64,000 nt of DNA from a virus (taxonomy: Duplodnaviria; Caudoviricetes), in the IMG/VR virus record IMGVR_UViG_3300035184_000978, positions 1,269-65,268 of that record, one strand, 5' to 3'. Positions 5,692 to 64,000 of the stretch are shown here, piece after piece. The position numbers and the translations under genes are program-made. The stretch's first letter is position 1. The number at the start of each line of letters is the position of its first letter. A model generated the notes under the pieces. That model did not search any database. It saw only the letters and a list, made by a program, of their open reading frames with translations, and was not told the origin of the DNA.

Positions 5692-6435
5692 ATGGCACAA
5701 CCAACTACAAGAGCAGAATTTAAAGAATACATACTTCGAAAAATGGGTGCTCCTGTCATTGAAATTAATGTTGCAGAAGAGCAAGTTGAAGACCGTGTAG
5801 ATGAAGCAATGTCATTCTGGAATGACTATCATTATAACGGTAGTCAACTTGTTTATATTAAACATAAATTAACTGCTGAAGATGTTACAAATAAATACAT
5901 AACGCTACCCGATAAAATATTAGGTATTTCTAAAGTTTTTGATATTGGTTCATCAATTTCATCTGGTACAGGAATGTTTAATGTTCAGTATCAATTTGTT
6001 CTAAACAACGTTACTGATATAAACGGTTACGGCATGCAAAATTATTACATGACAATGCAACATTTAGAAATGATGCAAGAGTTACTTGTAGGTAAACCAC
6101 TTATACGATATAATAAACACGTTAATAGACTTTATATTGATGTGAATAAAGCATCGCTGATAGAAGGTCAGTTTGTCGTTATTGAAGCATACGATTTAAT
6201 TGATCCCGATACTTATTCTGACGTCTGGTCTGATCGTTGGTTGCAGAATTACGCAACTGTACTTGTTCGCGAACAGTGGGGTTTAAATCTCACAAAATTT
6301 GTAGGAATGCAATTAGTTGGAGGAGTATCTTTTAATGGAGAAAGCATATTAGCAGAAGCAAGAGCTGATAGAGAAAGAATTGAAGATGATGCTATATCTA
6401 ATTTACAACCACTCACTTACAACTTTATCGGATAA
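5692..6435 (+). CDS. gp13: Neck protein gp13
   Basis: LRKMGAPVIEINV...QWG.NL.KF.GMQL.GGV..NG motifs; T4 synteny. Confidence 0.92.
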   Translation: MAQPTTRAEFKEYILRKMGAPVIEINVAEEQVEDRVDEAMSFWNDYHYNGSQLVYIKHKLTAEDVTNKYITLPDKILGISKVFDIGSSISSGTGMFNVQYQFVLNNVTDINGYGMQNYYMTMQHLEMMQELLVGKPLIRYNKHVNRLYIDVNKASLIEGQFVVIEAYDLIDPDTYSDVWSDRWLQNYATVLVREQWGLNLTKFVGMQLVGGVSFNGESILAEARADRERIEDDAISNLQPLTYNFIG

Positions 6436-6438
6436 TTC

Positions 6439-7116
6439 ATGGCTACTAGCTCATATTTTAACAACTATGGTAATCTCAACGAACAGAAATTAATCGATGA
6501 TCTCGTAATAGAGTCGATTAAAATATATGGTGTTGACATAATTTATATCACTCGCTCTTTACAGAGTGTCGATACCATCATGAATGAAGATGATATTTCC
6601 ATATTTGATGAGACATTTGAATATGAAGTTTATGTTAAAAACGTTGATGGATTTGAAGGTCAGGGTGATTTCTTATCTAAGTTTGGTTTGCAAATCCAAG
6701 ACGAAGTTACTTTTACTGTTGCATACAGAACATTTGAAAAATTTGTTACAGGAGAAAATGCAACAAAAACTAGACCACTAGAAGGTGATTTAATATACTT
6801 CCCGTTAACTTCAAAAATGTATAGGTTAAATTTTGTTGAACATGAAAGTGTTTTCTATCAAGCAGGAACACTACAAGTATATGATATGAAATGCGAGCTC
6901 ATGGAATACTCTGGTGAGAGGATGGCAACAGGCAACATAATTGTTGATGAACACTTTAGAGATATCGATACTTCAAATACAAATTCACTAGAAAGCCTCT
7001 CAGATGTTGACTTGATGTCTGATAACTTAAACTTTGAAACTGAAGGCGACTCAATTATCGATTTTAGCGAGATAGATCCGTTTAGTGAATCACTCGATAT
7101 AACAGATTTAGAATAG
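6439..7116 (+). CDS. gp14: Neck protein gp14
   Basis: EQ.LIDDLV.ESIKIYG, FLSKFGL, RP.EGDLIYFP, FVEHE..FYQ. Confidence 0.92.
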   Translation: MATSSYFNNYGNLNEQKLIDDLVIESIKIYGVDIIYITRSLQSVDTIMNEDDISIFDETFEYEVYVKNVDGFEGQGDFLSKFGLQIQDEVTFTVAYRTFEKFVTGENATKTRPLEGDLIYFPLTSKMYRLNFVEHESVFYQAGTLQVYDMKCELMEYSGERMATGNIIVDEHFRDIDTSNTNSLESLSDVDLMSDNLNFETEGDSIIDFSEIDPFSESLDITDLE

Positions 7117-7124
7117 GATAACTA

Positions 7125-7916
7125 ATGGCAATTGCAAACTATTTTTATAATGAAACAACTAGAAAATATGTTGCTCTCTTTGGTACTTATTTTAATCAGT
7201 TGAGAATAAAAAGAACTGATAACAATGGCACTGAAATACAAAATATGATTGTACCAATATCTTACGCTCCATTTCAAAAGATATTAAGTAGATTAACACA
7301 AGATCCGAATTTAGATCAAAAGTCATCAATTACGCTTCCAAGAATATCTTTTGAAATGACTTCAATGTCTTATGATGGTACTCGCAAAATATCACCAATA
7401 AAGAAAATTAGAAAGAATTCTATTCGCGATAATTTTATATACGCTGGTACTCCGTACAATTTAGAATTTTCGTTGTACATAATGACTAAATATAACGATG
7501 ACGCTATGAAATTAGTAGAGCAGATATTACCGTTCTTTAATCCAGAATTCACTAGCACAGTTAGACTGCTTGATGATATCGATCCAATTGATGTTCCGTT
7601 GATACTAAACGATGTGTCAAGCGAAGACATCTACGAAGGTGAGTATACAACTCGAAGAAGCATAATGTGGACTTTAAACTTTACAATGAAAGCTTGGTAC
7701 TATGGACCGGCAAAACAAGGTAAACTTATTAAATTTGTTGATAGTAGAATTTCAACTTCAGACGCAGCTAACTCTCAAGTTGAATCAACAATAACTGTTC
7801 AACCCGGATTAACATCAGGTGGTGATCCAACAACAGACATTACAGAAACTGTCGATTATAGTTTAATTGATTTTGCTGATGATTGGGATTATATAGTAGA
7901 TATTAATAGTCCGTAG
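7125..7916 (+). CDS. gp15: Tail sheath stabiliser/terminator gp15
   Basis: YFYNET.RKY...FGT.FN, VPISYAP, LPRISFEM, EQILPFF.P. Confidence 0.92.
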   Translation: MAIANYFYNETTRKYVALFGTYFNQLRIKRTDNNGTEIQNMIVPISYAPFQKILSRLTQDPNLDQKSSITLPRISFEMTSMSYDGTRKISPIKKIRKNSIRDNFIYAGTPYNLEFSLYIMTKYNDDAMKLVEQILPFFNPEFTSTVRLLDDIDPIDVPLILNDVSSEDIYEGEYTTRRSIMWTLNFTMKAWYYGPAKQGKLIKFVDSRISTSDAANSQVESTITVQPGLTSGGDPTTDITETVDYSLIDFADDWDYIVDINSP

Positions 7917-8377: not shown

Positions 8378-9257
8378 TGGATATTTAGGTAATACAAACC
8401 TAAAGAAAATAAATGAGGACATATCATTTACTCCAGAACAATTAAAAGAATATATGGCGTGCATGAAAGATCCGATATATTTTTCTAAAAATTATATTAA
8501 AATAGTTCACGTTGATCGTGGCTTAATTCCTTTCGATATGTATGATTACCAAGAAGATATATGTAATAAAATATTCAAGTATCGAAGAGTTGCTGTACTT
8601 ACTGCAAGACAGGCTGGTAAAACCACTACTGCAGTTGCAATCATATTACACTATATTTTATTTAATGAATTCAAAACTGTAGCTATTCTTGCTAACAAAG
8701 GAGACGCTGCTCGTGAAGTATTAGGTAGAGTTCAACTAGCATATGAAGCACTACCAAAATGGATGCAGCAAGGCATCGAAGAATGGAATAAAGGTAGTAT
8801 CGCATTAGAGAACGGTTGTAAAATATATGCAGGTACAACATCTTCATCTGCTATTCGCGGTAAGTCAATCTCATTCTTGTACTTAGACGAAGTCGCGTTT
8901 ATCGAAGGCTATGATGAATTCTTCGCTTCAGTTTATCCTACTATATCATCTGGTGAAACTACTAAATTATTAATGACATCAACACCAAACGGTATGAATC
9001 ATTTTTATAAAACATGCGTTGGTGCTAAAGAAGGTACAAACGGATACGAATACAATGAAGTGACTTGGGATATGGTTCCTGGGAGAGGACTTACGTGGAA
9101 AAATGAAACTTTGGAAGCTCTCGATTTTGATGAAGAAAAGTTTGAGCAGGAATACAATTGTGTAAAAGGAAACACTATAGTCACCGTAAGAGATAAAGAT
9201 ACTGGTGAAATAAAACAAATTGCAATAGAAAGTTTATACAACGAAATTCAAGTATGA
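8370..9257 (+). CDS. gp17: Terminase large subunit N-fragment (ATPase) fused to a 32-aa split-intein N part
   Basis: YLGN.NLK, RQAGKTT Walker A, LYLDEVAF Walker B, STPNG. Ends EQEYN|CVKGNTIVTVRD (intein block A, Cys at 9159). Confidence 0.92.
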   Translation: MINGYLGNTNLKKINEDISFTPEQLKEYMACMKDPIYFSKNYIKIVHVDRGLIPFDMYDYQEDICNKIFKYRRVAVLTARQAGKTTTAVAIILHYILFNEFKTVAILANKGDAAREVLGRVQLAYEALPKWMQQGIEEWNKGSIALENGCKIYAGTTSSSAIRGKSISFLYLDEVAFIEGYDEFFASVYPTISSGETTKLLMTSTPNGMNHFYKTCVGAKEGTNGYEYNEVTWDMVPGRGLTWKNETLEALDFDEEKFEQEYNCVKGNTIVTVRDKDTGEIKQIAIESLYNEIQV

Positions 9258-9298
9258 GTGCGAATTCTTTGGTTTATAAATAAACTAAGGAGATTAAC

Positions 9299-10000
9299 AT
9301 GAATAAAAATGTTGTATACATGATAACTAGAACAGATGGTCAGCAATATATTGGTATTACTTGTGAATATAGAAAAAGAATGTCCACTCATAAAAAATCT
9401 AAAAGATTTGAAATTGGTATAGAAAAAATTGAAATACTAAAAGATTGCGATACTTATTCAGAAGCAGAAGATTTAGAAGAAATATTTATAGCTGAGCATG
9501 ATACGTTTTATAACGGTCTTAATGAAAGTATAAATGGAAAAGGTAATCATTTAGCTCCTAACTTTAACACAAAGGGATTTAAATACTCTGAAGAATCAAA
9601 GCAAAAAATGAGAGATAATCATTGGTCAAAAAAAATGAAAAATACATGGTCGAAACCTGAAAATTTTTCTGAAGAAACAAAAAAGAAATGGTCTGAAATG
9701 CGCAAAGGTAAGAGTTGGGGCGGTAGGAAAATACCATTTAGTGAAGCTAAGGATATTATAGATAATTTTGAAAATGATACTTTGATATTTGAAGACGAGT
9801 TTGTCGTTCAGTTTGTTAAAAAATTAGATAAATACAAAGTTGGTAAAGTTAAGATTGAAGAATTAAAAGCATCTAACGGTAAATATATTAGTAAAAAGAA
9901 ATTATATTCTGAATTTTACTCGAAAAAATATAATGTTACAGCGGATGCAATTAGAAGAATTATAGAAAATGGAGTGTCAGAACGTGCAGTTACAGAGTAA
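9299..10000 (+). mobile_element. Free-standing GIY-YIG homing endonuclease with NUMOD3-like repeats, inserted in gp17
   Basis: VYMI...YIGIT...R...H...E...GLN, then SEESKQKM and SEETKKKWS. Own late promoter at 9275 and RBS AAGGAG. Confidence 0.85.
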
Positions 10001-11141
10001 ATATGAAATACTGACAAACGACGGCTGGTCAAAATTTGACGGCGTACGGAAGTCACTAACTACTGGTATAGTAACTCTATCGTTAGAAAATAGACAAACG
10101 TTAGAATGTTCACTAGACCATGAGTTAGAAACCGACTTGGGATTTACACCAGCGCAGAAATTACTACTAGGTTATAGAATTAAAACTAAGGACGGCTTCA
10201 GTAGAGTTTCATATTTGCATATTGACAAAAACGAATCTGCCAATGTATACGACGCGCTAGAAGTTAGTAATGGAAATAAATATTTAACAAACGGAATGGT
10301 TTCTCACAATTGTCAATTCGTCGGCAGTTCTGGTACTCTTGTTAGTGGATCTAAACTAAAAGAATTAGCTTATGTTAGGCCATTGCATGAAGGTAATGGC
10401 CTAACACAATACAAAAAACCAGATAAAACTAAAACATATGTACTCATTGTTGATGTATCAAGAGGTAAAGGTTTAGATTATTCAACGTTCAACATTATCG
10501 ATATAACTAAAATGCCTTATCATCAAGTATGTGTTTTCAGAGATAATTTTATTGGCCCAGTAGATTTTGCTGCAACAATATTTAGATTAGGTAAAATGTA
10601 TAATGAAGCATATGTATTAGTAGAAATAAACGATATTGGCGAACAGGTGTCAGACGTGCTTACGATGGATTATGGCTACGAGAATTGTTTATTCACAGAA
10701 AACGCAGGTCGAGCTGGTAAAAGAATTTCAAGCGGTTTTGGTAAAAGAGCTGATAATGGAATAAGAACAACAAAAAGTGTAAAATCTATCGGTTGCTCAA
10801 TATTAAAAATGTTGATAGAACAAAACCAATTAATTCTATATGATTTTAATACAATACAAGAACTGTCTAGATTTTCTAGAAAGGGTTCATCTTATGAGGC
10901 TGAATCTGGAGCTCACGATGATTTAGTTATGAACTTAGTCATATTTGCATGGCTATCTGACCAAGCGTATTTTAAAGATCTAACTGACATAAATACAATG
11001 ATGATGCTCAGAGAGAAAACTGAAGAGCAAATAGAAGAAGATTTGTTACCTTTTGGTTTTATTGATGACGGACATGATGAAGTTGATTCAGAAGGATTTA
11101 GACCAATTGTTACTACAAATGGTACAGATGATTGGATTTAG
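9984..11141 (+). CDS. gp17: Split-intein C part (about 109 aa) fused to terminase large subunit C-fragment (nuclease)
   Basis: ECSLDH (block B), VYD (F), SHN|CQFVGSSG (G; splice junction 10310/10311), then VDVSRG.GLDYS and HDDLVM. GTG 9984 follows GGAG; alternative ATG at 9969. Confidence 0.9.
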   Translation: MQLQSKYEILTNDGWSKFDGVRKSLTTGIVTLSLENRQTLECSLDHELETDLGFTPAQKLLLGYRIKTKDGFSRVSYLHIDKNESANVYDALEVSNGNKYLTNGMVSHNCQFVGSSGTLVSGSKLKELAYVRPLHEGNGLTQYKKPDKTKTYVLIVDVSRGKGLDYSTFNIIDITKMPYHQVCVFRDNFIGPVDFAATIFRLGKMYNEAYVLVEINDIGEQVSDVLTMDYGYENCLFTENAGRAGKRISSGFGKRADNGIRTTKSVKSIGCSILKMLIEQNQLILYDFNTIQELSRFSRKGSSYEAESGAHDDLVMNLVIFAWLSDQAYFKDLTDINTMMMLREKTEEQIEEDLLPFGFIDDGHDEVDSEGFRPIVTTNGTDDWI

Positions 11142-26645: not shown

Positions 26646-27755
26646 TTACTTTTCTACCATTATTTTTATGTTTGTGCAGTTATCTGCGTTGTAAAAGCGA
26701 TCAATTGACTCTAGCTTGTTTAAAAGTTTGTGATACATCCCTATACTACGACAATGATCATAATCAAACATATAAGCACTGCCATTAACAAGTTCTAAAG
26801 GCACTGCAGTGATAGTGCCTTTAGTAGCGTCAGGTATTTCTTTTATATGATCCCAGTCTTGAGCATTTGTACAAAAAGGTTTTTTATAATTGCAATCGAC
26901 ATCAGTTAAGATTCCATAAATCCATTCTTTGTCGTGCTCGCTAAACAAATAAGGCGAGCCAATCTCATAAATATTACCTTTATAAATCAATGTTTTATTT
27001 TTCATCTAATCGCCCTCTTTCACTGTCATTTCACGTATGTTTGTACAAAGCTTTGTTAAATAGATTGATTGATTTGTTATGAGTTGCCCTGTTGCGTCAT
27101 TGTATATGCCGACAACAGGCTTAATATCAGCGTGGTAACTAAACATATAAGCATTGCCATTAACAAGTTCTAAAGGCACTGCAGTGATAGTGCCTTTATT
27201 AGTGTAGTGTATTTCTTTTATAAAAGGCCATTGCTGAAATTTTGTGTAAAAAGGGTTTTTAAAACGAGGACCTATGCCTATTAAGATTCCATATTCCCAA
27301 CGATTTGCAGCATTACCAAATAAATACGGCTTACCAATTTCGTAAATACTGCCATTATAAACCACTGTTTCATTTTCCATCTAAGCGCCCTCCTTAACTT
27401 CCATTTTACGTATGTTTGTACAATCTGATTCAGTAGCCCAGCCGTCATCAGCCATGATGAATTTCCCGCTATTTTTACTGAATATCCCTATTAAATTAAT
27501 ATGATTATCACATTCAAACATATAAGCGGCCCCATTAACAAGAGTCTCTGGCGTTATTGTGCCGTGATCCTCAAGTTCAGAAAAAGCGCAGATATTTTTG
27601 AATTGGTTTCCGTAACGATCTTCAAAAGGGTAGATTGAGAAATTGCAAATTGATTTAAGTCGACCATAAATCAATTTGGTATTATCGTCAAAAAATAAAT
27701 ATTCTTGACCAATCTCGTAAACCTTACCTTTATAAACTAATGTTTTATTTTCCAT
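26646..27755 (-). repeat. Three tandem paralogous CDS (26646-27005, 27006-27380, 27381-27755)
   Basis: All share MxNxT.VY.G..YEIG..YLF...GTIT...LVNG.AYMF...CTNIR; abutting stop/start. Confidence 0.85.
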
Positions 27756-54398: not shown

Positions 54399-55322
54399 TG
54401 TGAATAAGCCCTGGGACTAGGCAAAATCAAAAATATCACTGGGATACGATGATTGGTCACACTTCCAATCATCGTTACCCACATTACGGCACCAACTTTA
54501 GTGCTTTGCGAACATAGGATATAAACAGTCCGCTAGACTCCGAAGCTTCTTTCATTTTAGCTTCAAGCTCAAAGCGCTTCTTGCGTTCGCGGTTCAGAGC
54601 ATTTTGCAGCTCTGCTGCAAGCTGTTTGTCGGCTGTAATTCGGACTCGCATATCTATCGCTCTATAGTCTCGTCTAATTTGATGGCGAAACCCGTCAAGA
54701 GCTATTAGCAAGAGCTTGTAAGCGTCAGAGTGGCCCCGGTGCTTACGCAGGTTTTGGAGGCTGAACTTCATACTGTCAATCTCATCTCTCAAAGCGTAAT
54801 AGTTGCGGGTGCTTTCTTCCCTTTCTTTTTTCCATTCGTCCTTTAAAATTTCGCTGTCTGGCATTTTGAATTGATCCTTTTAATTAACTACTAGCATCAT
54901 GGTTATAAATACTTTGTTTTAGTGTTGGATTGAAAATTAACTTTATCTTTGGCTATCATAGTTTTACTTAACCAATTCATCTTCTAAGTCCTTTAATTTA
55001 CTCATTATTAAGCAACAATCATATTTAATTGTTTAATAATTGCAGATAGTGACTCTGTACTGGGTTTGTATTTTTTACGTAGTGATGTTTCATGCCATTT
55101 TAAATAATGGTCTGTGTCTAAATTAGTTTTGTAAACATATCCAACATATCCACACTCCATTAGTTCTGGCTTATCTGATACATACGTAACAATTGCATCC
55201 ATGCCGTTAAACTCTGTAAATAGTTTACCTTGGATAATTACATTCTCTTCTAAGTTAAAGTAGTTCATTATTCCACCTAATATTTTTGCAATAAACTGTA
55301 TTTAAAAAGTATATGTTTGATT

Positions 55323-55745
55323 TTAACTTTCATTATTTTGATTGGTTGATACTTTGCTGATAAATGCATCAACTCTATTCATTATTTTGATTGTGGCTAG
55401 GTAGCCCACTCCATATCCATTGTCAGTAACCTTTTGTGACTTGGTTATGTCTATCATTATCTTTGCGGCGATTGAAATGTCTTTCTCAAGCTCTGCAATC
55501 TTACTACATTTTTCAGCACACTCATTTGTTTGGCTTTTTATAGTATTTTCAAGATCTGTAATTGTATTTTTTTGACTTCGAGTGTTCCAAGCTTTGATTA
55601 AATCAAACCTTTGACCTAATCCTGTGTTACTCGTTACTGCGCCGCATGAGTGAACCAATCTAAACCTACCAAGCTTACCAGTGATGGTTGGAACTTCTGA
55701 ACAAAAGGGGCACTGTTTTAATTCTTTACTCGTTTGGTTATCCAT
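55323..55745 (-). CDS. Lar-like zinc-ribbon protein with coiled coil
   Basis: ELK.CPFC...H.CG.....AWNTR. Confidence 0.55.
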   Translation of the reverse strand: MDNQTSKELKQCPFCSEVPTITGKLGRFRLVHSCGAVTSNTGLGQRFDLIKAWNTRSQKNTITDLENTIKSQTNECAEKCSKIAELEKDISIAAKIMIDITKSQKVTDNGYGVGYLATIKIMNRVDAFISKVSTNQNNES

Positions 55746-57665
55746 AATTTAATACCTTTATCAATTTATGTAACTAATATAATATATTCATAATTAAATG
55801 TCAACATATTTTTCTAATGACATTGTATATATTATATGTTATAATTTTGCTCCAAAGTTTACACCATTAATAAAAGCTGTAGTAATATCGTCAGGAGTAA
55901 GTGCATTTTTACATATAGAATCTTTAGTGTATTCTGTTGCAGCACGTTGAACTGAATCATTGATATACATCTCTTGTGTATATTTTTTAAATTCACGTTG
56001 TTCTCGCTTAAGTTCAATATTTTTTAAGTATTCTATTGAACTGCAACTATTACATAAACTTGACGATGCAGGATTAGTATGATTACGACAACATATCCTG
56101 CACCGTACATATCTTCTTTTAGAATTCATAATTTATTCTCTTAATCGATTTATGTTAATGATATATTCAAATATTTAACAATATGTTTAAGCTGCTTTTA
56201 ACTCTTTAATTGCTGACTTTATCCAAACTTGCTGTTTGTCTCTTGTTGCTGGTATATGTCCATTTTTAAAACATAAGTATCTAATAGCGAAATCGTTTAC
56301 CAAATTGTCATTTTCTCTATTGTGAGCTATGATTATTTCTATTTCGTTTTCTATGGTTTCTGCTATTCCTTTTGCTGCTTCTCTTACTTTTGCTGCGTTT
56401 TCGAAAGATTCTAGTCTCATTGCTAGTCTTTTTGCGAAAGTTTTAAATGTAGCCATATTATTCTCTTTTTATGATTGCTTCAATAGAGTTATAATATCAC
56501 ATATAAACAAGTATGTACACATATATATGATATTATTTTTACTATAGCCGTTTGTCATTTATAGCTTGACCATCTAATTTAACTTTGCTTTAATTGATCT
56601 CCAAATATGCTTAATGTCATCAACCGTATACTCATAAGGGTCATAAGCAAAATCAATCTCGCAGACATTACATTCTTCATCAGTATACTCGTAATGCCCA
56701 GCTTCTGCAAATCCAAGCATCTCAGTGCTTAACATCTCTAAAGCACTTTCAATTTTTGCTTTTTCTTTAAATTTTCCAACAAATCCGGCTTGTTCGTTAA
56801 CTACTTGTAGTCTCATAATTTTCTCGCTTGGTTTGTTTACTTAAATAGAGTTGTAATATTACACATATTAACTCGAGTATACGCTATGTGAGTAAATCTC
56901 AAGTTAATATGATGGTTGATTAGCTGGATTTAATGTCTCGCTCATAGCGAGAAATCATTGCAACATCAACTGGCAAGCCCAACTCTACACACTCTTGTAT
57001 GTAACGTTCCAAGCACTCAGTTAAATGAACTGACTCTTTAGATTTTAATGTATTCGTTGTTGTCATTTTGCTTTCCTAGAGAAAATGCCCCGAAAGGCGG
57101 TAGGTTACTATTGATCTTTTTCTGCTTTAGCTTTAGCTTTGCGATTTATATAAGATTTAGCGTTAATTATGCTTAATTCTAAATCATCCTCAATGTCGTC
57201 GTGGCCATGGCCGCCACATTCGCGGTCATTGTCAAAATAGTGACTCCAGTTTAAATCGTTCATTGTAATTCCTTTGTTATGTTTGCTTCAATAGAGTTAT
57301 AATATCACACAAATATGTATATGTACATACATATTTCATATTAATTGCATATATAAGTGAAGACCAAGTTGTGATAGTGATTAAAGCCAGATAGTGCCAG
57401 CTGATTCTTGAATAGTGTATTCGTATTTGTTTAACACCGGCTTACCGTTGAAGGATTCGCTTTCAAGTACAATCAAGACTCCATCCAACTTTGCGTGAGG
57501 AATTCCATCTATCATGAATATTTTTCTGGTCAGGTTTCTAAATGTTGCCCCTCTATCTGTTTTAGTCATGACTGTTAGATTTTTCATAATATATTTCCTG
57601 ATTTGTTTGCTTTATTAATTTATGAGACTATTATAATATAATGAGAACGAAATGTCAACTTTATT

Positions 57666-57913
57666 TGGAGGGATGTTTAAAAAAAGGAGTTGTGATAATA
57701 CGAATGTTACTAATATTTATTAACTACCCATCAAAAGTGACTAATGTTATCAGGGTAGGATTTTATTGATTTTTCTTATCAATGGTGATTAAATGTCATA
57801 CTAGAAAAGCACCACTGTCTTTTTTAGTACATACTCCTAATAGTGAGCTTAACCAAAAGTCAATAAAGTCAGAGGCTACAGGGACATGTTATCTGTCAGT
57901 CCAAGCATCACTC
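57666..57913 (-). ncRNA. Candidate about 250-nt structured RNA
   Basis: ORF-free; closing stem ending in CCA; several internal stems and two possible pseudoknots. Confidence 0.5.
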
Positions 57914-57914
57914 A

Positions 57915-58373
57915 TCAGCTATATAATTTGTTTATGAGTTTTATTTCTGCGTCAACTTGAGCAACCAACTTTCTTGCTTTTGTATAACTAGCAATAAGTT
58001 TAGTTCCATTTTTCAATGCACTCGCATCAATGTCTTCAGATCCAACTTTAAACGCATCTGCGAGTAATTGATTGATCTTAGTCATGTCGTTGAGTTCCAT
58101 GTGATTTGGATCTAATTCTAATTTAGCTTCGGTGAGTACAGATTCCGTCAATGGTTTATCTTTAGTTAAATGATACTTACCTGCGATTTTAGTAGTAAAA
58201 TACGTTGCGGTTTTTCCTTTATGAGTACCATTAGAGTTTTCAATCTCAGCGCGCGCCATAGCAGCGCTTTGATCTATTTTATACAACTTTTTCATTACAG
58301 CTTCGTAACTTCCAGTTGCAAGTACAGATTCTTCTAATTGGCTGCGCTCTTTGAATGCTTTAAATGATTTCAT
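57915..58373 (-). CDS. Candidate internal (head-packaged) protein
   Basis: MKSFKAF...LEE; late promoter at 58412. Confidence 0.65.
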   Translation of the reverse strand: MKSFKAFKERSQLEESVLATGSYEAVMKKLYKIDQSAAMARAEIENSNGTHKGKTATYFTTKIAGKYHLTKDKPLTESVLTEAKLELDPNHMELNDMTKINQLLADAFKVGSEDIDASALKNGTKLIASYTKARKLVAQVDAEIKLINKLYS

Positions 58374-58414
58374 TTTTCTCTATCTCCTAATTAATCCAAT
58401 TGTTTCAATTATAT

Positions 58415-58735
58415 TTATAGTGTTCTTTCACGTTTAAATGTGTCGATAATAAAGTTAATGCCATCTTCAATAACATCGTAAGAATTTGTTTCGTTAATCA
58501 AAGGAAGTTTAAGATTTACCGTTTTGCCTTCATTAAAATCAAATATGTCTATTTCAGCTTCAAATAAGCTATCAATGTTTTCGAAAATATAAACAGATAC
58601 GCAATAATCGTCATCACCTAGTATGAAGCGATATACGTTTTCATCTTCAAATTCTGCATCAATTTTACCAGCAAGGGTTACGCATGCTCTTGAGATGATT
58701 GATTGTGCTATAGCTGTTGTTTCGTTAAGATTCAT
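58415..58735 (-). CDS. Acidic early hypothetical protein
   Basis: Promoter cassette; paralog at 20049-20322. Confidence 0.7.
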   Translation of the reverse strand: MNLNETTAIAQSIISRACVTLAGKIDAEFEDENVYRFILGDDDYCVSVYIFENIDSLFEAEIDIFDFNEGKTVNLKLPLINETNSYDVIEDGINFIIDTFKRERTL

Positions 58736-58812
58736 AATTTATTCTCTTTATCAATTTATGAGACTATAATATAACAATCAAAATAAAATGTCAACAGCTA
58801 TCTTTATTTAAA

Positions 58813-58889
58813 TGGCAAAGGTGGAGGGATTCGAACCCCCATCACGCGAGTTTGGAATCCGCTGTTCTACCAATTGGAACTACACCTTC
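58813..58889 (-). tRNA. tRNA-Trp(CCA)
   Basis: Full cloverleaf, loop TT-CCA-AA, encoded CCA. Confidence 0.9.
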
Positions 58890-58919
58890 ATATTAAACTC
58901 TTCGTAAGATTAGACTAAA

Positions 58920-59066
58920 ACGTACTGCACGTTTTTTATTTGTAGCTTTTAGTTTTTAACAGTGTCACTATCGTTATTAGCAAATCCATTAATGCTTGAT
59001 GTTTTAAATGAATTTCAACATTTTTAAAATATTTTTTACAGTACCAGAATCTTCAAAATTAAGTGA
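58920..59066 (-). pseudogene. Frameshifted tandem duplicate of 59099..59341
   Basis: Colinear nucleotide matches (AATATTTT.AAAA..TTGAAA, GCATT.ATGGATT, GACACTG...AAAAACTAAAAG) with frameshifts; no start. Confidence 0.65.
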
Positions 59067-59098
59067 TTTAGCTGGTGCTGATAAATTCGAATTCCTTA

Positions 59099-59341
59099 TT
59101 ATTCGTCCGCTGCGTATAGTGCATCTACGAACGCCTCATATGCTTTTATTGCAACTTTTAGTTTTTGAGCAGTGTCTCTGTTTGTACTATTTGCCCAATC
59201 CATCAATGCTGGAGAACCTAAATATTTTTCAATGTTTTCAAAATATTCAGTAGCAGATAGAGAATCTTTAAATGTTGTATACTTCACCATTTTATCCATT
59301 GAAGCTTCATTAAGTGTGTTGTGTTGTTTAAAACTTTTCAT
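59099..59341 (-). CDS. Candidate internal protein
   Basis: MKSFKQH..LNE; late promoter at 59392. Confidence 0.65.
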   Translation of the reverse strand: MKSFKQHNTLNEASMDKMVKYTTFKDSLSATEYFENIEKYLGSPALMDWANSTNRDTAQKLKVAIKAYEAFVDALYAADE

Positions 59342-59649
59342 GTGTTTCCTTTATTAGACTATTATAACATAATAGTATCTTTATTTTGAGTTATTTATAA
59401 TTTGACTGGTGTTGAGAAATTCTAATTCCAATCACACAGTTCTGTTTAATAAAGATTCTCACTAAACAATATATTGAACGAACTTCGTTCAAAGGATGTT
59501 CGTTATTACTATTGCTTCTTTACGATTTAAGGAAATACTATATTGGTCAATAAATCTTTGTTTGCATTCATGTTGTTGCCTTTTAATCAATGCGCCATTG
59601 TAATACATTTTTGTATAGTCTTCTATTGCTGGTTTAAAGTCTTCGTTTT

Positions 59650-60141
59650 TCATGATATATGACGTTCATGTACTGGAGCTTTAGCGCAAACTAATTTTTT
59701 AAAACAATCAGCTGCTGAACTTGCGGCCCACGCGTTTGGTTTTACAAGTGGTTCAATTTGACAAGTACCTTTAATGTACCCTATCGCCTGAGTAACTACA
59801 CAAGATGATCCGGCGTTGGGATTTGGATTAATATCCAGGTGTACAAAAGTTTCATACTCTATAATCTCAGGAGCCAATTTCAGATATAATTCAGAAGCTT
59901 TAATAACTTCGCTCATTAATCGCATTGCTGGCTTTTTGTTATTTACTTCATAATCTTTTTCACGGATGGTTTCACCAAATATCTTACAACCTTTTGAACC
60001 ATCTAGGTGAACTACGACAACAACATTATAATCAACAACACCTTTCTGACGTGATACTTTTTCAGAATCACAACCAATGTGAACAGTGGTTTTAGGACCT
60101 TGACTATTTACAAATTTTATTACCTCTTCTAAATTTAACAC
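59650..60141 (-). CDS. RNase H-like YkuK/DUF458 family protein
   Basis: IGCDS, RLMSEV, VHLDINP, KP.AWAAS.AAD. Confidence 0.8.
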   Translation of the reverse strand: MLNLEEVIKFVNSQGPKTTVHIGCDSEKVSRQKGVVDYNVVVVVHLDGSKGCKIFGETIREKDYEVNNKKPAMRLMSEVIKASELYLKLAPEIIEYETFVHLDINPNPNAGSSCVVTQAIGYIKGTCQIEPLVKPNAWAASSAADCFKKLVCAKAPVHERHIS

Positions 60142-60169
60142 GATGTTTACTCACTGTTGTTACAAAAAA

Positions 60170-60234
60170 TGGTAGGTCTGGACGGAATCTAACTGCAATG
60201 TAAAAACAGTTCGATTCCCCTCAGCTACAGGCCT
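60170..60234 (-). ncRNA. 65-nt tRNA-mimic: acceptor stem plus ACCA and one long hairpin, no anticodon arm
   Basis: AGGCCTG/CAGACCT-ACCA; GGAATCGAACTG/CAGTTAGATTCC. Confidence 0.6.
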
Positions 60235-60239
60235 AAAAA

Positions 60240-60359
60240 TATGTTATGATGGGTTATCACACATCTAGTTTAAACAGGTTGATACACTATTAAGTTTAAA
60301 CCGTAGTCTAAACGCCCGTCCTCTTTACAACAACGATACCGCGTTAGTATCACAACATA
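60240..60359 (-). ncRNA. Candidate structured RNA in tRNA cluster
   Basis: Closing TATGTTGTGAT/ATCATAACATA; internal GTTTAAAC/GTTTAAAC stem. Confidence 0.5.
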
Positions 60360-60363
60360 ATTT

Positions 60364-60452
60364 TGGCAGAAGGCATCGGTTTCTGGTCGGGACTGTGTTA
60401 TCGACAATATAGTTTAGCAAACTGCTCCAGTTCCCCGACTGGTTTACCTTCT
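60364..60452 (-). ncRNA. tRNA-Ser(GCT)-derived RNA lacking a T loop
   Basis: AGAAGGT/GCCTTCT-GCCA; GCAGT-TTGCTAA-ACT; T arm replaced by a complement of the D arm. Confidence 0.6.
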
Positions 60453-60457
60453 AAAAA

Positions 60458-60533
60458 TGGAGCGTCTATCCAGATTCGAACTGGAAACTGCAGGGTGGAA
60501 GCCTGTTGTGTTGCCGTTAAACACCATAGACGC
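60458..60533 (-). tRNA. tRNA-Gly(TCC)
   Basis: GCGTCTA/TAGACGC-TCCA; CT-TCC-AC. Confidence 0.9.
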
Positions 60534-60555
60534 TTTAAACTTTTTCAAATATAAT

Positions 60556-60629
60556 TAGGGTGGACAACGATTCAGCAGATGTGGAATAACAACCGGGAGC
60601 TTTTCCAATTAAGCTACGACCACACCCTA
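60556..60629 (-). pseudogene. tRNA 5'-half remnant (His-like) in a new closing stem
   Basis: GTGGTCG-TA-GCTT-AATTGGAA-AAGC then divergent; TAGGGTG/CACCCTA. Confidence 0.5.
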
Positions 60630-60685
60630 CATAAATTATATTATAAGACCAACGAAATACAAAGATTTCATTTTAGATTTTCTTT

Positions 60686-61081
60686 TTACTGAACACCCAA
60701 CTTAGCAGCTGTCGTTTTAAAATTCTTCTTTCTCATTACTGTTTTTGCAATCATATCTAATTCATCGTTTTTCTTATCATACTTAAGCATAAATGGTAAA
60801 TTGATGTATGAATTAAAATCAGTTATGACTGCTTCAACACCCGGATTCATTCCACCGATTTTATTACCGTGCTTAGCAAATACTTTTTTAAACATTGCCA
60901 TCATTTCAACTACTGTGATCTGTTTGCCATTTCTTGGATCATTAACTCTATCCCTAAAATGTCTACCCGACAAATCAACGTCAACACCAACTGCAGCAAA
61001 AAGTTTATCTGCAAACTTTTCTATGATGCCTATTTCTGTACCACTTAAACTCTCTACTATAAATTCTTTGTACGACTTCAT
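60686..61081 (-). CDS. Candidate internal protein
   Basis: MKSYKEFIVE closely matches the T4 capsid-targeting sequence; late promoter at 61112. Confidence 0.75.
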   Translation of the reverse strand: MKSYKEFIVESLSGTEIGIIEKFADKLFAAVGVDVDLSGRHFRDRVNDPRNGKQITVVEMMAMFKKVFAKHGNKIGGMNPGVEAVITDFNSYINLPFMLKYDKKNDELDMIAKTVMRKKNFKTTAAKLGVQ

Positions 61082-61185
61082 TTAAACTTTCTCTTGTTGT
61101 TGTTATAATCATATTTATATATTAGAGTGCATTGAGTAGAACAACAAGTTTTTTGAGTGCAATTATTATAATCAAACATTTAAAA

Positions 61186-61273
61186 TGGAGGAAGGTAGAG
61201 TAATCGAAACCCCAACGTTTTACCGATGCCCAAGGGTTCAAACCTTGTTGCCTACCATTTAGCGGTACCTTCC
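61186..61273 (-). tRNA. tRNA-Ser(TGA)
   Basis: Class II cloverleaf, TT-TGA-AC, CCA. Confidence 0.85.
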
Positions 61274-61380
61274 TAAAATTATATCAACAACACATTTAAT
61301 AATTTGTTTATCTTCCTGAGAGCCGGTAACGATAAACTTGGTCCGGTTAATCAACAATTTATACTATAATAGTATAAATT

Positions 61381-61455
61381 TGGTGCCGATTAGAGGTAAC
61401 GATCCCCTATCCCCAGATTACAAAACTGGTGCATCACCATCAATGCTTAATCGGC
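61381..61455 (-). tRNA. tRNA-Thr(TGT)
   Basis: GCCGATT/AATCGGC-ACCA; TT-TGT-AA; T loop ATCGTTA. Confidence 0.88.
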
Positions 61456-61501
61456 TAAACTTTGGTAGCAATTCAACGCTACATATGTGCTCTTACAATA
61501 T

Positions 61502-61591
61502 TGGCGGACGGGGTTGGGTTCGAACCAACGATGGGGATAAATCCTCGGCAGGTTAACAGCCTGCTGCCTTCAACCACTCGGCCACCCGTCC
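61502..61591 (-). tRNA. tRNA with GTT (Asn) anticodon and long variable arm
   Basis: GCAGG-CTGTTAA-CCTGC; 18-nt variable region; GCCA end. Confidence 0.85.
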
Positions 61592-61606
61592 TAAATTTTT
61601 ATTAAA

Positions 61607-61762
61607 AATATTTTCTGTATGCCACTCGAATCTAACAAGTTACCAGGTAACCATGTAACCATCCCAGCTTATCCGATACATATGTTCCATTGCGGTTACA
61701 ACGGTAATGTATGTTCACGCGATAGTCGATTCAAACTACAGCTTAGACATACAGAAAATATT
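61607..61762 (-). ncRNA. Candidate 156-nt structured RNA
   Basis: 15-bp perfect closing stem AATATTTTCTGTATG/CATACAGAAAATATT; just downstream of the promoter at 61810. Confidence 0.6.
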
Positions 61763-61833
61763 CTTCTTTCCTGATTTGATGAAACTATTATATCACACAT
61801 AATAGTTAATGTCAACACTTATTTTATTAAATT

Positions 61834-61905
61834 TGGTGGAGCCAAACGGTAACGATCCGTTCCATCCGTGGTGCAAGCACAGAGTCAATCCCATAAAGTG
61901 GCCCC
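61834..61905 (-). tRNA. tRNA-Ala(TGC) with reduced D arm
   Basis: GGGGCCA/TGGCTCC-ACCA (G3:U70); CT-TGC-AC. Confidence 0.75.
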
Positions 61906-61946
61906 AAATCGTTAGTAAACTGTATTCTTCAACAATTTACATAATG

Positions 61947-62019
61947 CATCCCGTACCAGATTCGAACTGGTGTTGCCGCCGTGAAAGGGCAGAGTTCTAG
62001 GCCTCTAAACTAACGGGAT
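61947..62019 (-). tRNA. tRNA-Glu(TTC)
   Basis: ATCCCGT/ACGGGAT; CT-TTC-AC; CCA not encoded. Confidence 0.88.
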
Positions 62020-62028
62020 AAACTGTTG

Positions 62029-62099
62029 TGGGTCGGGAGGTAACGATCCTCCTTCAGTAGACTTTTAATCTAGTGCATCACTATTAATGCTTCGAACCC
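62029..62099 (-). tRNA. tRNA-Lys-like body with inverted anticodon loop (reads AAA); possibly a pseudo-tRNA
   Basis: GGGTTCG...CGACCC-A; loop TTAAAAG is the reverse complement of CTTTTAA. Confidence 0.6.
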
Positions 62100-62105
62100 G
62101 TAATG

Positions 62106-62179
62106 TCAGAGAGGTAGGATTCGAACCTACGACCACTCGCGTCCAAGGCGAGTACGCTACCAGACTGCGCTACTCTCTG
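62106..62179 (-). tRNA. tRNA-Pro(TGG)
   Basis: CAGAGAG/CTCTCTG-A; CT-TGG-AC. Confidence 0.9.
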
Positions 62180-62186
62180 TATTCTT

Positions 62187-62262
62187 TGGTGGCCCAGCCT
62201 AGATTCGAACTAGGAATAAACGATTATGAGTCGCATGTGTTAACCAATTACACCACCGGGCC
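62187..62262 (-). tRNA. tRNA(CAT), probably Ile2
   Basis: GGCCC acceptor and GCGA-CTCATAA-TCG resemble bacterial Ile2; ACCA. Confidence 0.8.
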
Positions 62263-62317
62263 ATCATTACTCTTTGGTACCAGTTACTAAACTAAACTAA
62301 ACTGGTACATTTAAATT

Positions 62318-62392
62318 TGGCGGGAATGAAGGGTTACGATCCCTCTTCTCTGACGTGACAGGCCAGCATAATAACCAGTATACTACACTCCC
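62318..62392 (-). tRNA. tRNA-Asp(GTC)
   Basis: GGGAGTG/CATTCCC-GCCA; CT-GTC-AC. Confidence 0.88.
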
Positions 62393-62486
62393 AAATTTTT
62401 AATTTCTTTCCTTATTTGATTTGATAAGACTATTATATCATGCCTTAAATCAAATGTCAACCTTTATTTTAATTAATTTTGACAAT

Positions 62487-62518
62487 AAAAAAGGTTTAAC
62501 CTTTCGATTAAACCTTTT
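62487..62518 (-). terminator. Intrinsic terminator of the putative attenuator
   Basis: AAAAGGTTTAATC-GAAA-GGTTAAACCTTTTTT. Confidence 0.85.
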
Positions 62519-62545
62519 ATGAAAATGCTTTTATTTACATTATGT

Positions 62546-62677
62546 TCACAAAGGGTTTAACCATTTTGTTTCCGCCGGAAGTACTATAAAATTACTATCT
62601 ACACTAGACCACGACATATTACTAAAGGCAGATCCCGTAGTCTGTGTGCTGTGTGTATGTTGATATCGTAAAGTCAT
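62546..62677 (-). CDS. 43-aa putative attenuator leader peptide MTLRYQHTHSTQTTGSAFSNMSWSSVDSNFIVLPAETKWLNPL
   Basis: Late promoter at 62704-62711; RBS AAAGGA 7 nt before ATG; 3' end overlaps the antiterminator arm. Confidence 0.7.
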   Translation of the reverse strand: MTLRYQHTHSTQTTGSAFSNMSWSSVDSNFIVLPAETKWLNPL

Positions 62678-62761
62678 TCGTATTTCCTTTGTAATTATAC
62701 TTTTATTTATAACGAGAATTTGTAAAACTCGAAATTATTTTCATTTATTTTCATTGTTTAA

Positions 62762-62877
62762 AATATAATTTGAAGATGTGGAATCGAACCACCAATCATC
62801 CAGAGTTAAAAGGAATCGAACCTTACATTTACATCTCAACTAGTTGAGACGGCTTTCCAAGCTCTTCAAATTATATT
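62762..62877 (-). ncRNA. Structured RNA with two tRNA T-arm-like hairpins
   Basis: 15-bp closing stem; AAGG-TTCGATT-CCTT and GTGG-TTCGATT-CCAC. Confidence 0.6.
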
Positions 62878-62878
62878 A

Positions 62879-62982
62879 TGGTCGGAGTCCTCGTGCAAAA
62901 GGTAGAAACGATCAACTCCTATTCGATAAACGTTATCCTAAATTAAAAGTGAAGGTGCACTAACGTTTATCAAAACTCCGAC
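62879..62982 (-). ncRNA. CCA-ended four-way-junction RNA
   Basis: GTCGGAGT/ACTCCGAC-CA; 14-bp arm; two small hairpins. Confidence 0.6.
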
Positions 62983-63352
62983 ATAATATAACTCATGTCT
63001 ACTTATAAAGAATATGGCGGCCAAATTTTAATTAAACTTTATCAATTTATGAGACTATTATACTACAATACTGAATAAATGTCAACAAATTAAAATAAGA
63101 TGTACAAATGTTTATCAAAACTCAGACACAAGTTATATTGTGTATACTTACTTTTAGTTTAAATTTCGAGTAATAGAGTACAGTTTTTTACTAACACGAC
63201 GTAGTCCAAATCGTCCACGCTTACTGTTAAGCTTCGGAGTATAACGAGTCCACTTTATTGTTAGCCTGTCTATATGATCATACCTCGAATAATTGAAGCT
63301 ATGCAGCCCAATTGGAGTGACTTCAGCAATGTGATCATTAATTTGAACTTCA

Positions 63353-63868
63353 TTAACTATTTTCATTATTATGATCCTTCGTTGTTTTTGCTTGAGTGCG
63401 CAACTCGTTAGCTTCTTCTATCAATAGAAATGACATTAATGATTTTGAGCCACATTTATCAACATATTTATACATGTCTTCTAGCCCCTTGGCTTGATGT
63501 TCTAGCTCGTGTATTTTGAACTCATCTTGAAACAAGCGCTGACAGTGATCAAAGGTCAAAACATTTGAGTTATTAAATTCATTTTCAAAACAACCTTCTC
63601 TTTTGTAAGATTCTATTATATCTTTCAGCTCTACAATACGTTTAATATCAGCTTGATGTTTTAAGTCACGTGAATGCATTAACCTCTCTAGTTCATAGAA
63701 CTTACTTTCCCAACCTTTTAAATCATTTATTTCAAGATGCAGCTTTTTACATACTTCAAATGCCACGCTCATCGATGCGCTATTTAAAACATCACGATCT
63801 TTCTCAAACTTTACAATAAGTTCTCTGTCTTGATCAGACTCTGGTGTTGTTGTGCTATTTACGTTCAT
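63353..63868 (-). CDS. Coiled-coil hypothetical protein
   Basis: RBS GGGGA; shares ELE.QAKG motif with 53056..53295. Confidence 0.6.
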   Translation of the reverse strand: MNVNSTTTPESDQDRELIVKFEKDRDVLNSASMSVAFEVCKKLHLEINDLKGWESKFYELERLMHSRDLKHQADIKRIVELKDIIESYKREGCFENEFNNSNVLTFDHCQRLFQDEFKIHELEHQAKGLEDMYKYVDKCGSKSLMSFLLIEEANELRTQAKTTKDHNNENS

Positions 63869-64000
63869 AATATTTTCCCCATTGAAGTAGCTAAAATAAC
63901 AAGGCTAAGTTAAGTGCCTTTCTTTTTTCGTATCTAGATTGTGCATTGCCGGGCAACATCATTTTTGGAAACAGCTTTTCATCCATTTCATAAGCTGCTG

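Follow-up and report, generated by a model that had tools for sequence, protein, structure and literature searches.

A possible translation-coupled conditional terminator upstream of the tRNA cluster of a T4-like phage

What is the role of a 43-codon open reading frame (ORF) which lies between a late-promoter motif and an intrinsic terminator upstream of a phage tRNA cluster, and whose last codons form one arm of a hairpin competing with this terminator? The element is small (approx. 230 nt), self-contained and located on the minus strand of a 64 kb stretch of DNA (the window), which is part of a 65,268-base IMG/VR virus record judged to be 38% complete. In the original prediction, the element was interpreted as a leader-peptide attenuator which gates the tRNA cluster and whose leader contains codons for every tRNA type found there. 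The parts named in it, i.e., late-promoter motif, ribosome binding site, 43-codon ORF, terminator, early promoter and tRNA, are all present on the minus strand in the places assigned to them. Judging from the folds and their conservation, we tentatively read the element as a translation-coupled conditional terminator (leader-ORF attenuator) and give this reading slightly less than an even chance. Should it turn out to be no more than a small late gene whose 3′ end is structured, the element would be ordinary.

Two mutually exclusive folds at the end of a short ORF

The minimum free energy (MFE) fold of the RNA from 62570 to 62487 is an antiterminator hairpin of 9 + 8 + 5 pairs with an energy of −24.6 kcal/mol (z = −5.45), a stability reached by 0 of 200 shuffled sequences. 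The 18-nt 5′ arm of this hairpin (62562–62545) consists of codons 39–43, the stop codon and one further nucleotide of the region encoding the ORF (62546–62677; codons 62677–62549, TGA stop 62548–62546). The inner 5-bp stem and its loop occupy 62524–62541, with 62541–62537 paired to 62528–62524, and the 3′ arm (62523–62506) doubles at 62518–62506 as the 5′ arm of the intrinsic terminator. The latter (62489–62518) comprises a 13-bp stem, a GAAA loop and six T, and is followed by TT at 62488–62487. When the 5′ arm of the antiterminator was masked, the terminator formed with −15.5 kcal/mol (−13.9 kcal/mol for the terminator alone). In the unmasked segment, the equilibrium probability is 0.985 for the outer antiterminator pair and 0.002 for the terminator pairs. 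Folding with and without the 3′ end of the ORF had been put forward as a check of the prediction, and it yields two mutually exclusive structures of which the antiterminator is dominant. The same was found in contig L005, the one independent lineage in which the full-length element was detected (a further contig, L006, is identical to L005 over the module): here, the MFE fold is the antiterminator with −22.0 kcal/mol, and masking of the 5′ arm results in the terminator with −14.8 kcal/mol. Further, GGTTAAACC has two copies in the 64 kb, both of them within the element, compared to 0.28 expected, and the pairing is, therefore, more than expected by chance.

In order to see how common such a competitor is, terminators were surveyed in the window as hairpins before a T tract, each folded with 60 nt of upstream context. 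Among the 35 terminator-like hairpins, the terminator probability was below 0.1 in six, four of which are weak (−8.0 to −8.8 kcal/mol). Only two of the 13 hairpins with a strength of at least −11 kcal/mol fell below 0.1, namely the terminator described here (0.01) and a hairpin at 27176, which is an overlapping alternative of the one at 27172. At 10 other IMG/VR loci, 13 instances of a terminator with the same stem were found. In each instance the MFE fold retains the terminator, and the GGTTRAACC arm is absent upstream at all 10 loci. In two Sphingobacterium genomes (L019, 2456–2477; L020, 7105–7126), the exact 22-mer of the terminator core is found behind an aldolase-like gene, and neither site has an upstream competing arm. 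Since it forms a plain terminator there, this match was taken as coincidence and dropped as a clue to the host. A terminator which is out-competed by an upstream arm is unusual among the terminators of this phage.

Expression of the ORF would start from two motifs further upstream. The sequence TATAAATA (62704–62711), which ends 27 nt before the ATG at 62677, corresponds to the −10 motif of T4-type late promoters and probably acts as a promoter. It occurs 23 times in the window compared to 12.2 expected, and copies are found 17–44 nt 5′ of the ATGs of structural genes on the plus strand, as determined from motif positions relative to ORF starts. Among the genes of the window are those for a tail sheath, a portal protein and a nicotinamide phosphoribosyltransferase. 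The sheath, the portal and the occurrence of TATAAATA before structural genes identify the phage as a T4-like myovirus. A Shine-Dalgarno sequence, AAGGA (62685–62689), is located 7 nt before the ATG. Both TATAAATA and the ribosome-site sequence AAAGGAAA are identical in L005. The ribosome site is locally unstructured (z of 0.8 and 0.6); as the region folds no better than shuffled sequences, a T4-style hairpin hiding the ribosome site in early read-through transcripts was rejected. Likewise, no weight was given to a pairing of the ribosome-site region with the end of the ORF in the nascent RNA, because AAAGG stands in both the ribosome site and the terminator arm and the pairing thus arises automatically.

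These parts could work together as follows. The late-promoter motif would drive a short mRNA, to which read-through from an early promoter at 63085 may add, and the 43-codon ORF would be translated, with the sequence of its peptide mattering little. A hairpin capturing the 5′ arm of the terminator would use the final five codons plus the stop codon as its own 5′ arm. As long as no ribosome covers this arm, i.e., when the RNA is untranslated or the leading ribosome is at or before approximately codon 35, the hairpin would form first and be the more stable one; the terminator would not form and the polymerase would read on toward the tRNA genes. A leading ribosome within the last approximately eight codons or at the stop codon, on the other hand, would melt the arm, so that the terminator folds and transcription ends. 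Since a ribosome on the arm would permit the terminator, slow or failing translation should raise read-through. Translation of the ORF, a working terminator, close coupling of ribosome and polymerase, and a downstream importance of read-through are all parts of this mechanism which we infer.

The position of the ribosome was modeled by masking 30 nt around the P-site codon and calculating ensemble probabilities at equilibrium for an RNA which ends with the terminator stem. For L005, this gave a terminator probability of at most 0.11 without a ribosome and with a ribosome at codons 1–35, 0.74 at codon 36 and at least 0.95 from codon 37 onward. The switch point in the window is nearly the same, with 0.71 at codon 35 and at least 0.88 from codon 36 onward. 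About 35 of the 43 codons, thus, leave the antiterminator free in this model, and a ribosome in the last approximately eight codons or at the stop codon is predicted to free the terminator.

Conservation of the structure and evolution of the ORF

The search for relatives covered several collections. No close record for the window was present in the phage collection (megablast of 61900–63400). In 50,697 phage records, tblastn produced no match for either the 43-residue peptide or the protein of the upstream 171-residue ORF, and a search of a 5.8-billion-protein set with the 43-residue peptide returned the query alone. The best match in the ESM Atlas (0.90, 135 shared features) is at chance level by the tool’s own figures. 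A search for related loci found none using the 171-residue ORF and the L005 contig alone using the neighboring 163-residue ORF. Scanning with a promoter pattern recovered L005 and L006 next to three unrelated chance matches (L007–L009), and scans of metagenomes with an N-terminal coding pattern and a terminator 5′-arm pattern gave 0 matches each. Distant blastn hits were confined to tRNA genes and, in Acinetobacter T4-like phages, to 74 nt of early-promoter sequence, whose context in AM101 is unrelated. The 163-residue protein places Stenotrophomonas phage DLP_6 (51.7% identity) nearest among cultured phages; this phage is too distant to hold the module, no scan of it for analogs having been made. 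The DNA contigs which cover portions of the stretch derive from a single seawater study, and stretches uncovered by them are uninformative; among the sequencing runs listed, none of RNA contains the stretch. The module is single-copy in G000, G001, and G002. An Rfam scan of 55000–64000 (E ≤ 1) detected the tRNAs and one chance match, but no curated leader RNA family.

The geometry of ORF and hairpin is kept in the one full-length relative found (L005/L006), in line with the original prediction. All 13 terminator pairs are identical in L005, and so are the five pairs of the inner stem. The antiterminator 5′ arm differs at 4 of 18 positions: two of the changes leave their pairs intact, one adds a pair and one disrupts a pair; a C-to-U change in L005 closes the C/A mismatch between the two antiterminator helices. 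In the 3′ arm, one difference is found. In total, 58 of 62 positions are identical over the stretch reaching from the stop codon through the T tract, and 70 of 83 in the region formed by the upstream block, the promoter and the ribosome site. The block at 62712–62760 on the minus strand, 5′ of TATAAATA, belongs to the latter, strongly conserved region; its counterpart in L005 is coding at its start alone, where a 56-codon ORF absent from the window ends.

Next to these constrained flanks, the ORF itself shows a different mode of evolution. The L005 ORF also has 43 codons, its TGA is found in the same alignment column, and no indel occurs over the 129 nt, even though there is a 1-nt indel in each flank. 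The other two frames contain three to five stop codons in both the window and L005, and a random frame of the same length and composition is open with P = 0.054. However, identity in codons 9–38 is just 58% for nucleotides and 23% for amino acids. The ratio of non-synonymous to synonymous substitution rates (dN/dS) between the window and L005 is 0.70 for the ORF and 0.77 for codons 9–38, at a dS of 0.60–0.76. In the neighboring 163-residue gene, dN/dS is 0.08 at a dS of 0.63, with 37 of 57 four-fold sites being identical. A third, partial lineage is available as a difference table of seawater contigs (X1 record 4; X2 records 10 and 12), in which 23 of 29 differences are listed. Mapping the listed differences by hand yielded 12 codons with non-synonymous and four with synonymous changes and no stop codon; two listed indels, at 62522 and 62528, are outside of the ORF. 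The contigs of records 5 and 11 have kept only 62498–62569, with 9 differences over 72 nt, and no alignment is possible upstream of it; in these contigs, too, conservation is highest in the 3′ structure. A near-neutral peptide together with constrained flanking RNA and a kept reading frame constitutes a leader-like pattern. This pattern fits the view that translation and RNA structure would matter here, while the peptide mostly would not.

Some parts of the peptide are conserved nevertheless, namely codons 1–8, G-x-A-F-S at codons 15–19, where synonymous changes occurred, and W-L-N at codons 39–41, which fall within the hairpin arm. On this basis, the ORF may encode a functional micro-protein. 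For codons 1–8 (62654–62677), the two differences from L005 are both non-synonymous and no synonymous change is found, compared to a dS of about 0.6 elsewhere, which suggests that the RNA itself is constrained.

We consider it rather unlikely that the element is an ordinary small late gene, i.e., a cassette of promoter, ORF and terminator which produces a 43-residue, perhaps fast-evolving peptide. The hairpin over the stop codon would then be a stabilizer of the mRNA 3′ end or have arisen incidentally when the terminator arm was partially duplicated, and constant translation of the ORF would make termination constitutive in vivo. Such a gene would account for the promoter motif at late-promoter distance, the ribosome site and the terminator, for an early promoter restarting transcription directly behind the cassette, for the conserved residues including the synonymous changes in G-x-A-F-S, and for the direct repeat GGTTAAACCYTTT, which flanks approximately 48 nt of the element as expected of a duplication. 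It does not readily explain why the peptide is without clear purifying selection when the neighboring gene is so strongly constrained, why the protein and phage record searches revealed no homolog beyond L005/L006, why the non-coding 3′ structure is far better conserved than codons 9–38, or why no other strong terminator of the phage has a competitor.

Covariation within the ORF raises another alternative. RNAalifold, applied to the window and L005, proposes a hairpin P2 in the middle of the ORF and a long-range helix P1. P2 (62621–62641; strands 62641–62634 and 62628–62621) has seven pairs, of which two are compensatory in L005, and might play a role in pausing. The 5′ strand of P1 (62642–62648), a candidate “region 1”, can pair with 62553–62547 in six pairs, three of which are compensatory. 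P1 would hold part of the antiterminator 5′ arm, similar to the 1:2 helix of trp. Any helix with at least three compensatory pairs was obtained in 2% of 400 column shuffles of the ORF. Energy minimization selects P1 in neither sequence, and the untranslated RNA is still predicted to form the antiterminator; P1 is, hence, suggestive only. The local folds around P2 show a stable hairpin in codons 10–26 (−17.9 kcal/mol and z = −2.0 in the window, −22.9 kcal/mol and z = −3.2 in L005), which could be a pause site. If P1, P2, the inner stem and the terminator together were the functional fold, the element would be a structured non-coding late RNA of approximately 210 nt with an incidental open frame. 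The 221-nt transcript indeed folds with a z of −3.9, the five compensatory pairs of P1 and P2 have a column-shuffle P of 0.02–0.03, codons 1–8 are conserved at the nucleotide level with 0 synonymous changes, and other unexplained structured RNAs are found just upstream. We nonetheless judge a non-coding RNA to be improbable, as the ribosome site and the ATG are conserved, correctly spaced and unpaired, frame and length are kept without indel in two or three lineages despite near-neutral divergence, the other frames are closed, and no Rfam family matches.

Returning to the conditional terminator, several of the observations weigh against it. All folding was performed at equilibrium, without kinetics and without the polymerase of the host. 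The conservation is based on two full sequences and one partial lineage, with L006 adding no independence. L005 agrees with the window in 13 of the 17 outer antiterminator pairs, retains two despite one-sided changes and has lost two; no compensatory, two-sided change was found among them between the window and L005. The structure is thus conserved without proof from covariation, and such covariation as exists backs P1 and P2, one of which competes with the antiterminator. The modeled terminator probability in the window reaches 0.5–0.7 when the ribosome is at codons 4–5 and 24–27, so that some stall sites would not give a clean switch. The conserved peptide parts and the micro-protein they may reflect belong to these points as well.

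The tRNA cluster and the codon content of the leader

The same holds true for the arrangement downstream of the element. The first gene of the cluster, tRNA-Asp(GTC) at 62318–62392 on the minus strand (ARAGORN and Rfam), follows within about 100 nt of the terminator, but it is preceded by a sigma-70-type early promoter (62432–62460; TTGACA, 17 nt, TG, TATAAT; 12 of 12 consensus matches), which begins 29 nt behind the terminator stem. Early promoters similar to this one are found elsewhere in the genome and also in Acinetobacter T4-like phages. The caveat of the original prediction, that an early promoter lies downstream of the terminator, consequently stands. A promoter after the terminator is present in L005, too, which makes the benefit of a regulated read-through unclear. 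In L005, the terminator is followed by a TTGACA/TATAAT-like promoter with an 89-codon ORF and by a second such promoter with a 41-codon ORF, before tRNA-Asp appears approximately 620 nt further on. Within the tRNA region of the window, additional TATAAATA motifs occur at 61119, 59399, and 58419. Given the early promoter, the L005 ORFs and these internal late motifs, read-through is not the sole route to the tRNAs, although it could add late transcription of the first ones. In the claim that the element gates the tRNA cluster, the geometry of antiterminator and terminator upstream of the cluster thus holds, whereas the gating as such is doubtful owing to the promoter, ORFs and late motifs between or within. 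A link to anticodon nucleases is purely inferred.

The second part of the claim concerned the codons of the leader. The leader does use 19 of the 20 amino acids and 31 different codons, as counted in the original prediction, yet neither number is more than mildly unusual. At least 19 amino acids occur with P = 0.027 in real 43-residue windows of the phage and with P = 0.067 in random draws, and at least 31 codons with P = 0.043. The L005 leader uses 19 amino acids as well, but this number is not independent because it follows largely from 16 shared residues (13 types); with these fixed, P for at least 19 is 0.32. The third lineage would have all 20 amino acids according to its listed changes alone (P of about 0.02 after 12 random replacements), a count which was made post hoc and is unsure due to the six unlisted differences. 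Eight tRNAs of the phage were called confidently by ARAGORN and Rfam (Trp, Gly, Thr, Asn, Glu, Pro, Met/Ile-CAT, and Asp), while Ser(tga), Ala(tgc), and a Lys-like gene were obtained at relaxed ARAGORN thresholds only; no tRNA-His was found in the cluster using ARAGORN and Rfam. The codons read by the eight confident tRNAs make up 14 of 43 in the ORF compared to a fraction of 0.312 in genes (P = 0.48). Adding the three marginal tRNAs results in 18 of 43 compared to 0.401 (P = 0.47). Hence, it is true for the eight called tRNAs that the ORF contains codons for every type, but this is uninformative. The leader is also without a run or an enrichment of any regulatory codon. For these reasons, pan-codon selection and an enrichment of tRNA-matched codons were dropped, and a pan-codon design does not follow from the correct counts.

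A full pan-codon sensor of the tRNA pool, selected for diversity and opening late tRNA transcription upon depletion of any tRNA, would be a special case of the conditional terminator. The 19 amino acids in both the window and L005, the possible 20 in the third lineage and the approximately 35 codons which leave the antiterminator free in the mask model speak for it. Nevertheless, we deem it very unlikely: the amino acid counts have the modest P-values given above and, for the third lineage, an uncertain basis, tRNA-read codons are not enriched, and the early promoter and, in L005, two ORFs separate the terminator from the tRNAs. Moreover, any leader ORF senses a stall at any of its own codons, without selection for diversity.

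In a broader form of this idea, the element might be a general sensor of translation capacity with a 43-codon leader which is free in sequence and employs almost all amino acids. The terminator would form only if the ribosome arrived at the stop codon in step with the RNA polymerase, and a shortage of any tRNA or of ribosomes, e.g., caused by host anticodon nucleases or starvation, would let late transcription continue into the phage tRNAs; we regard this as unlikely, too. If true, it would represent a virus-encoded feedback loop from translation speed to tRNA supply. A phage-borne, codon-unspecific attenuator beside a tRNA cluster would imply that phages monitor the translation capacity of their host in cis and adjust late transcription to it. 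This, in turn, would concern the purpose of tRNA genes in phages and the phage response to defenses targeting tRNAs.

Neighboring RNAs and comparison with known systems

Further structured RNAs were observed around the element. A conserved RNA of approximately 100 nt (62878–62981, minus strand) is located behind the early promoter at 63085–63057 and has counterparts in L005 at 7428–7542 and 10694–10806. It forms an acceptor-like stem closing a three-way junction, its 3′ end reads CCA, and it matches no Rfam family; the three copies (one in the window, two in L005) contain five compensatory pairs. Directly after it, a second odd RNA follows (62775–62868, minus strand; L005 7545–7672) with a closing stem and two T-arm-like GGTTCGATTCC motifs, for which ARAGORN did not call a tRNA. 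The pair of RNAs is present twice in L005, and the copy at 10686–10942 is 77% identical to the pair in the window.

The cluster itself also holds unusual tRNA genes. At 61502–61591 (minus strand), a 90-nt tRNA combines a long variable arm with the anticodon GTT (Asn), which is an unusual combination; the cluster of DLP_6 includes an annotated “tRNA-Pseudo-GTT”. At relaxed ARAGORN thresholds, tRNA-like genes were detected on the minus strand at 62028–62100, 61838–61910, and 61186–61273, with the anticodons AAA, TGC, and TGA, respectively. The “AAA” gene is 89% identical to tRNA-Lys(TTT) of L005. In tRNA-like stretches at approximately 62340, 62045, 61855, and 61405, the canonical T-loop near the 3′ end is replaced by GGATCGTTACC or GGGATCGTAACCC. 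Two ORFs of L005 were assigned by eye only: a 273-residue ORF upstream of the module (6182–7003) appears flagellin-like, and a 219-residue ORF between tRNA genes (9207–9866) appears HNH-like.

In the tRNA region of T4, the tRNA genes are surrounded by small ORFs, stable RNAs and promoters of both the early and the late class, and the RNA at 62878–62981 recalls the stable RNAs of this region. The window resembles it in that its tRNA cluster is interspersed with small ORFs, has stable-RNA-like genes upstream and contains TATAAATA motifs. To our knowledge, a leader-ORF attenuator has not been described in the T4 tRNA region, and leader-peptide attenuators are known from bacterial biosynthetic and resistance operons. 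A full-text literature search did not reveal a leader-peptide attenuator for a phage tRNA cluster.

Ribosome-mediated attenuators operate in amino-acid operons, e.g., trpL, hisL, leuL, thrL, ilvL, and pheL. In the trp/his type, a ribosome near the stop codon favors the terminator and a ribosome held back favors read-through. Leader-peptide attenuators of amino-acid operons are the subject of two publications (PMC3082878, PMC6614838). With the trp/his type, the element shares an intrinsic terminator behind a short ORF that has a ribosome site, and an antiterminator which uses the 5′ arm of the terminator; its distance from the stop codon to the T tract of approximately 57 nt is of the same order, and the predicted response to the position of the ribosome, here in an equilibrium model, is the same. 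In contrast to this type, the element lacks a regulatory codon bias and any Rfam match, and its leader is longer (43 codons). Its 1:2 helix is weak and unproven, so that the untranslated RNA is predicted to read through rather than to terminate. Furthermore, it is phage-borne, lies behind a late-promoter motif and has a promoter between the terminator and the downstream genes.

In coupling-dependent attenuation of the pyrBI type, a ribosome close to the polymerase sits on the sequence of the terminator hairpin and thereby keeps the hairpin from forming. As in pyrBI, the outcome would depend on how closely the leading ribosome trails the RNA polymerase. However, the sign is opposite, since a close ribosome in the element would permit the terminator by melting its competitor.

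Leader attenuators which sense an inhibition of translation include ermK, bmrCD, and lmo0919. The B. subtilis resistance gene vmlR is likewise preceded by a leader-ORF attenuator sensing translation inhibition (PMC9226507). The vmlR/ermK type and the element have in common that the stall as such would be the signal, that the leader peptide is poorly conserved and that alternative hairpins would read out the position of the ribosome. They differ in that attenuators of this type are bacterial, respond to drugs and regulate genes for ABCF proteins, methylases or pumps, whereas the element is found in a phage, with an early promoter and tRNA genes instead of a resistance gene downstream and with no known inducer. 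By analogy, the logic of the element appears nearer to that of leader ORFs sensing translation inhibition than to that of the trp/his family.

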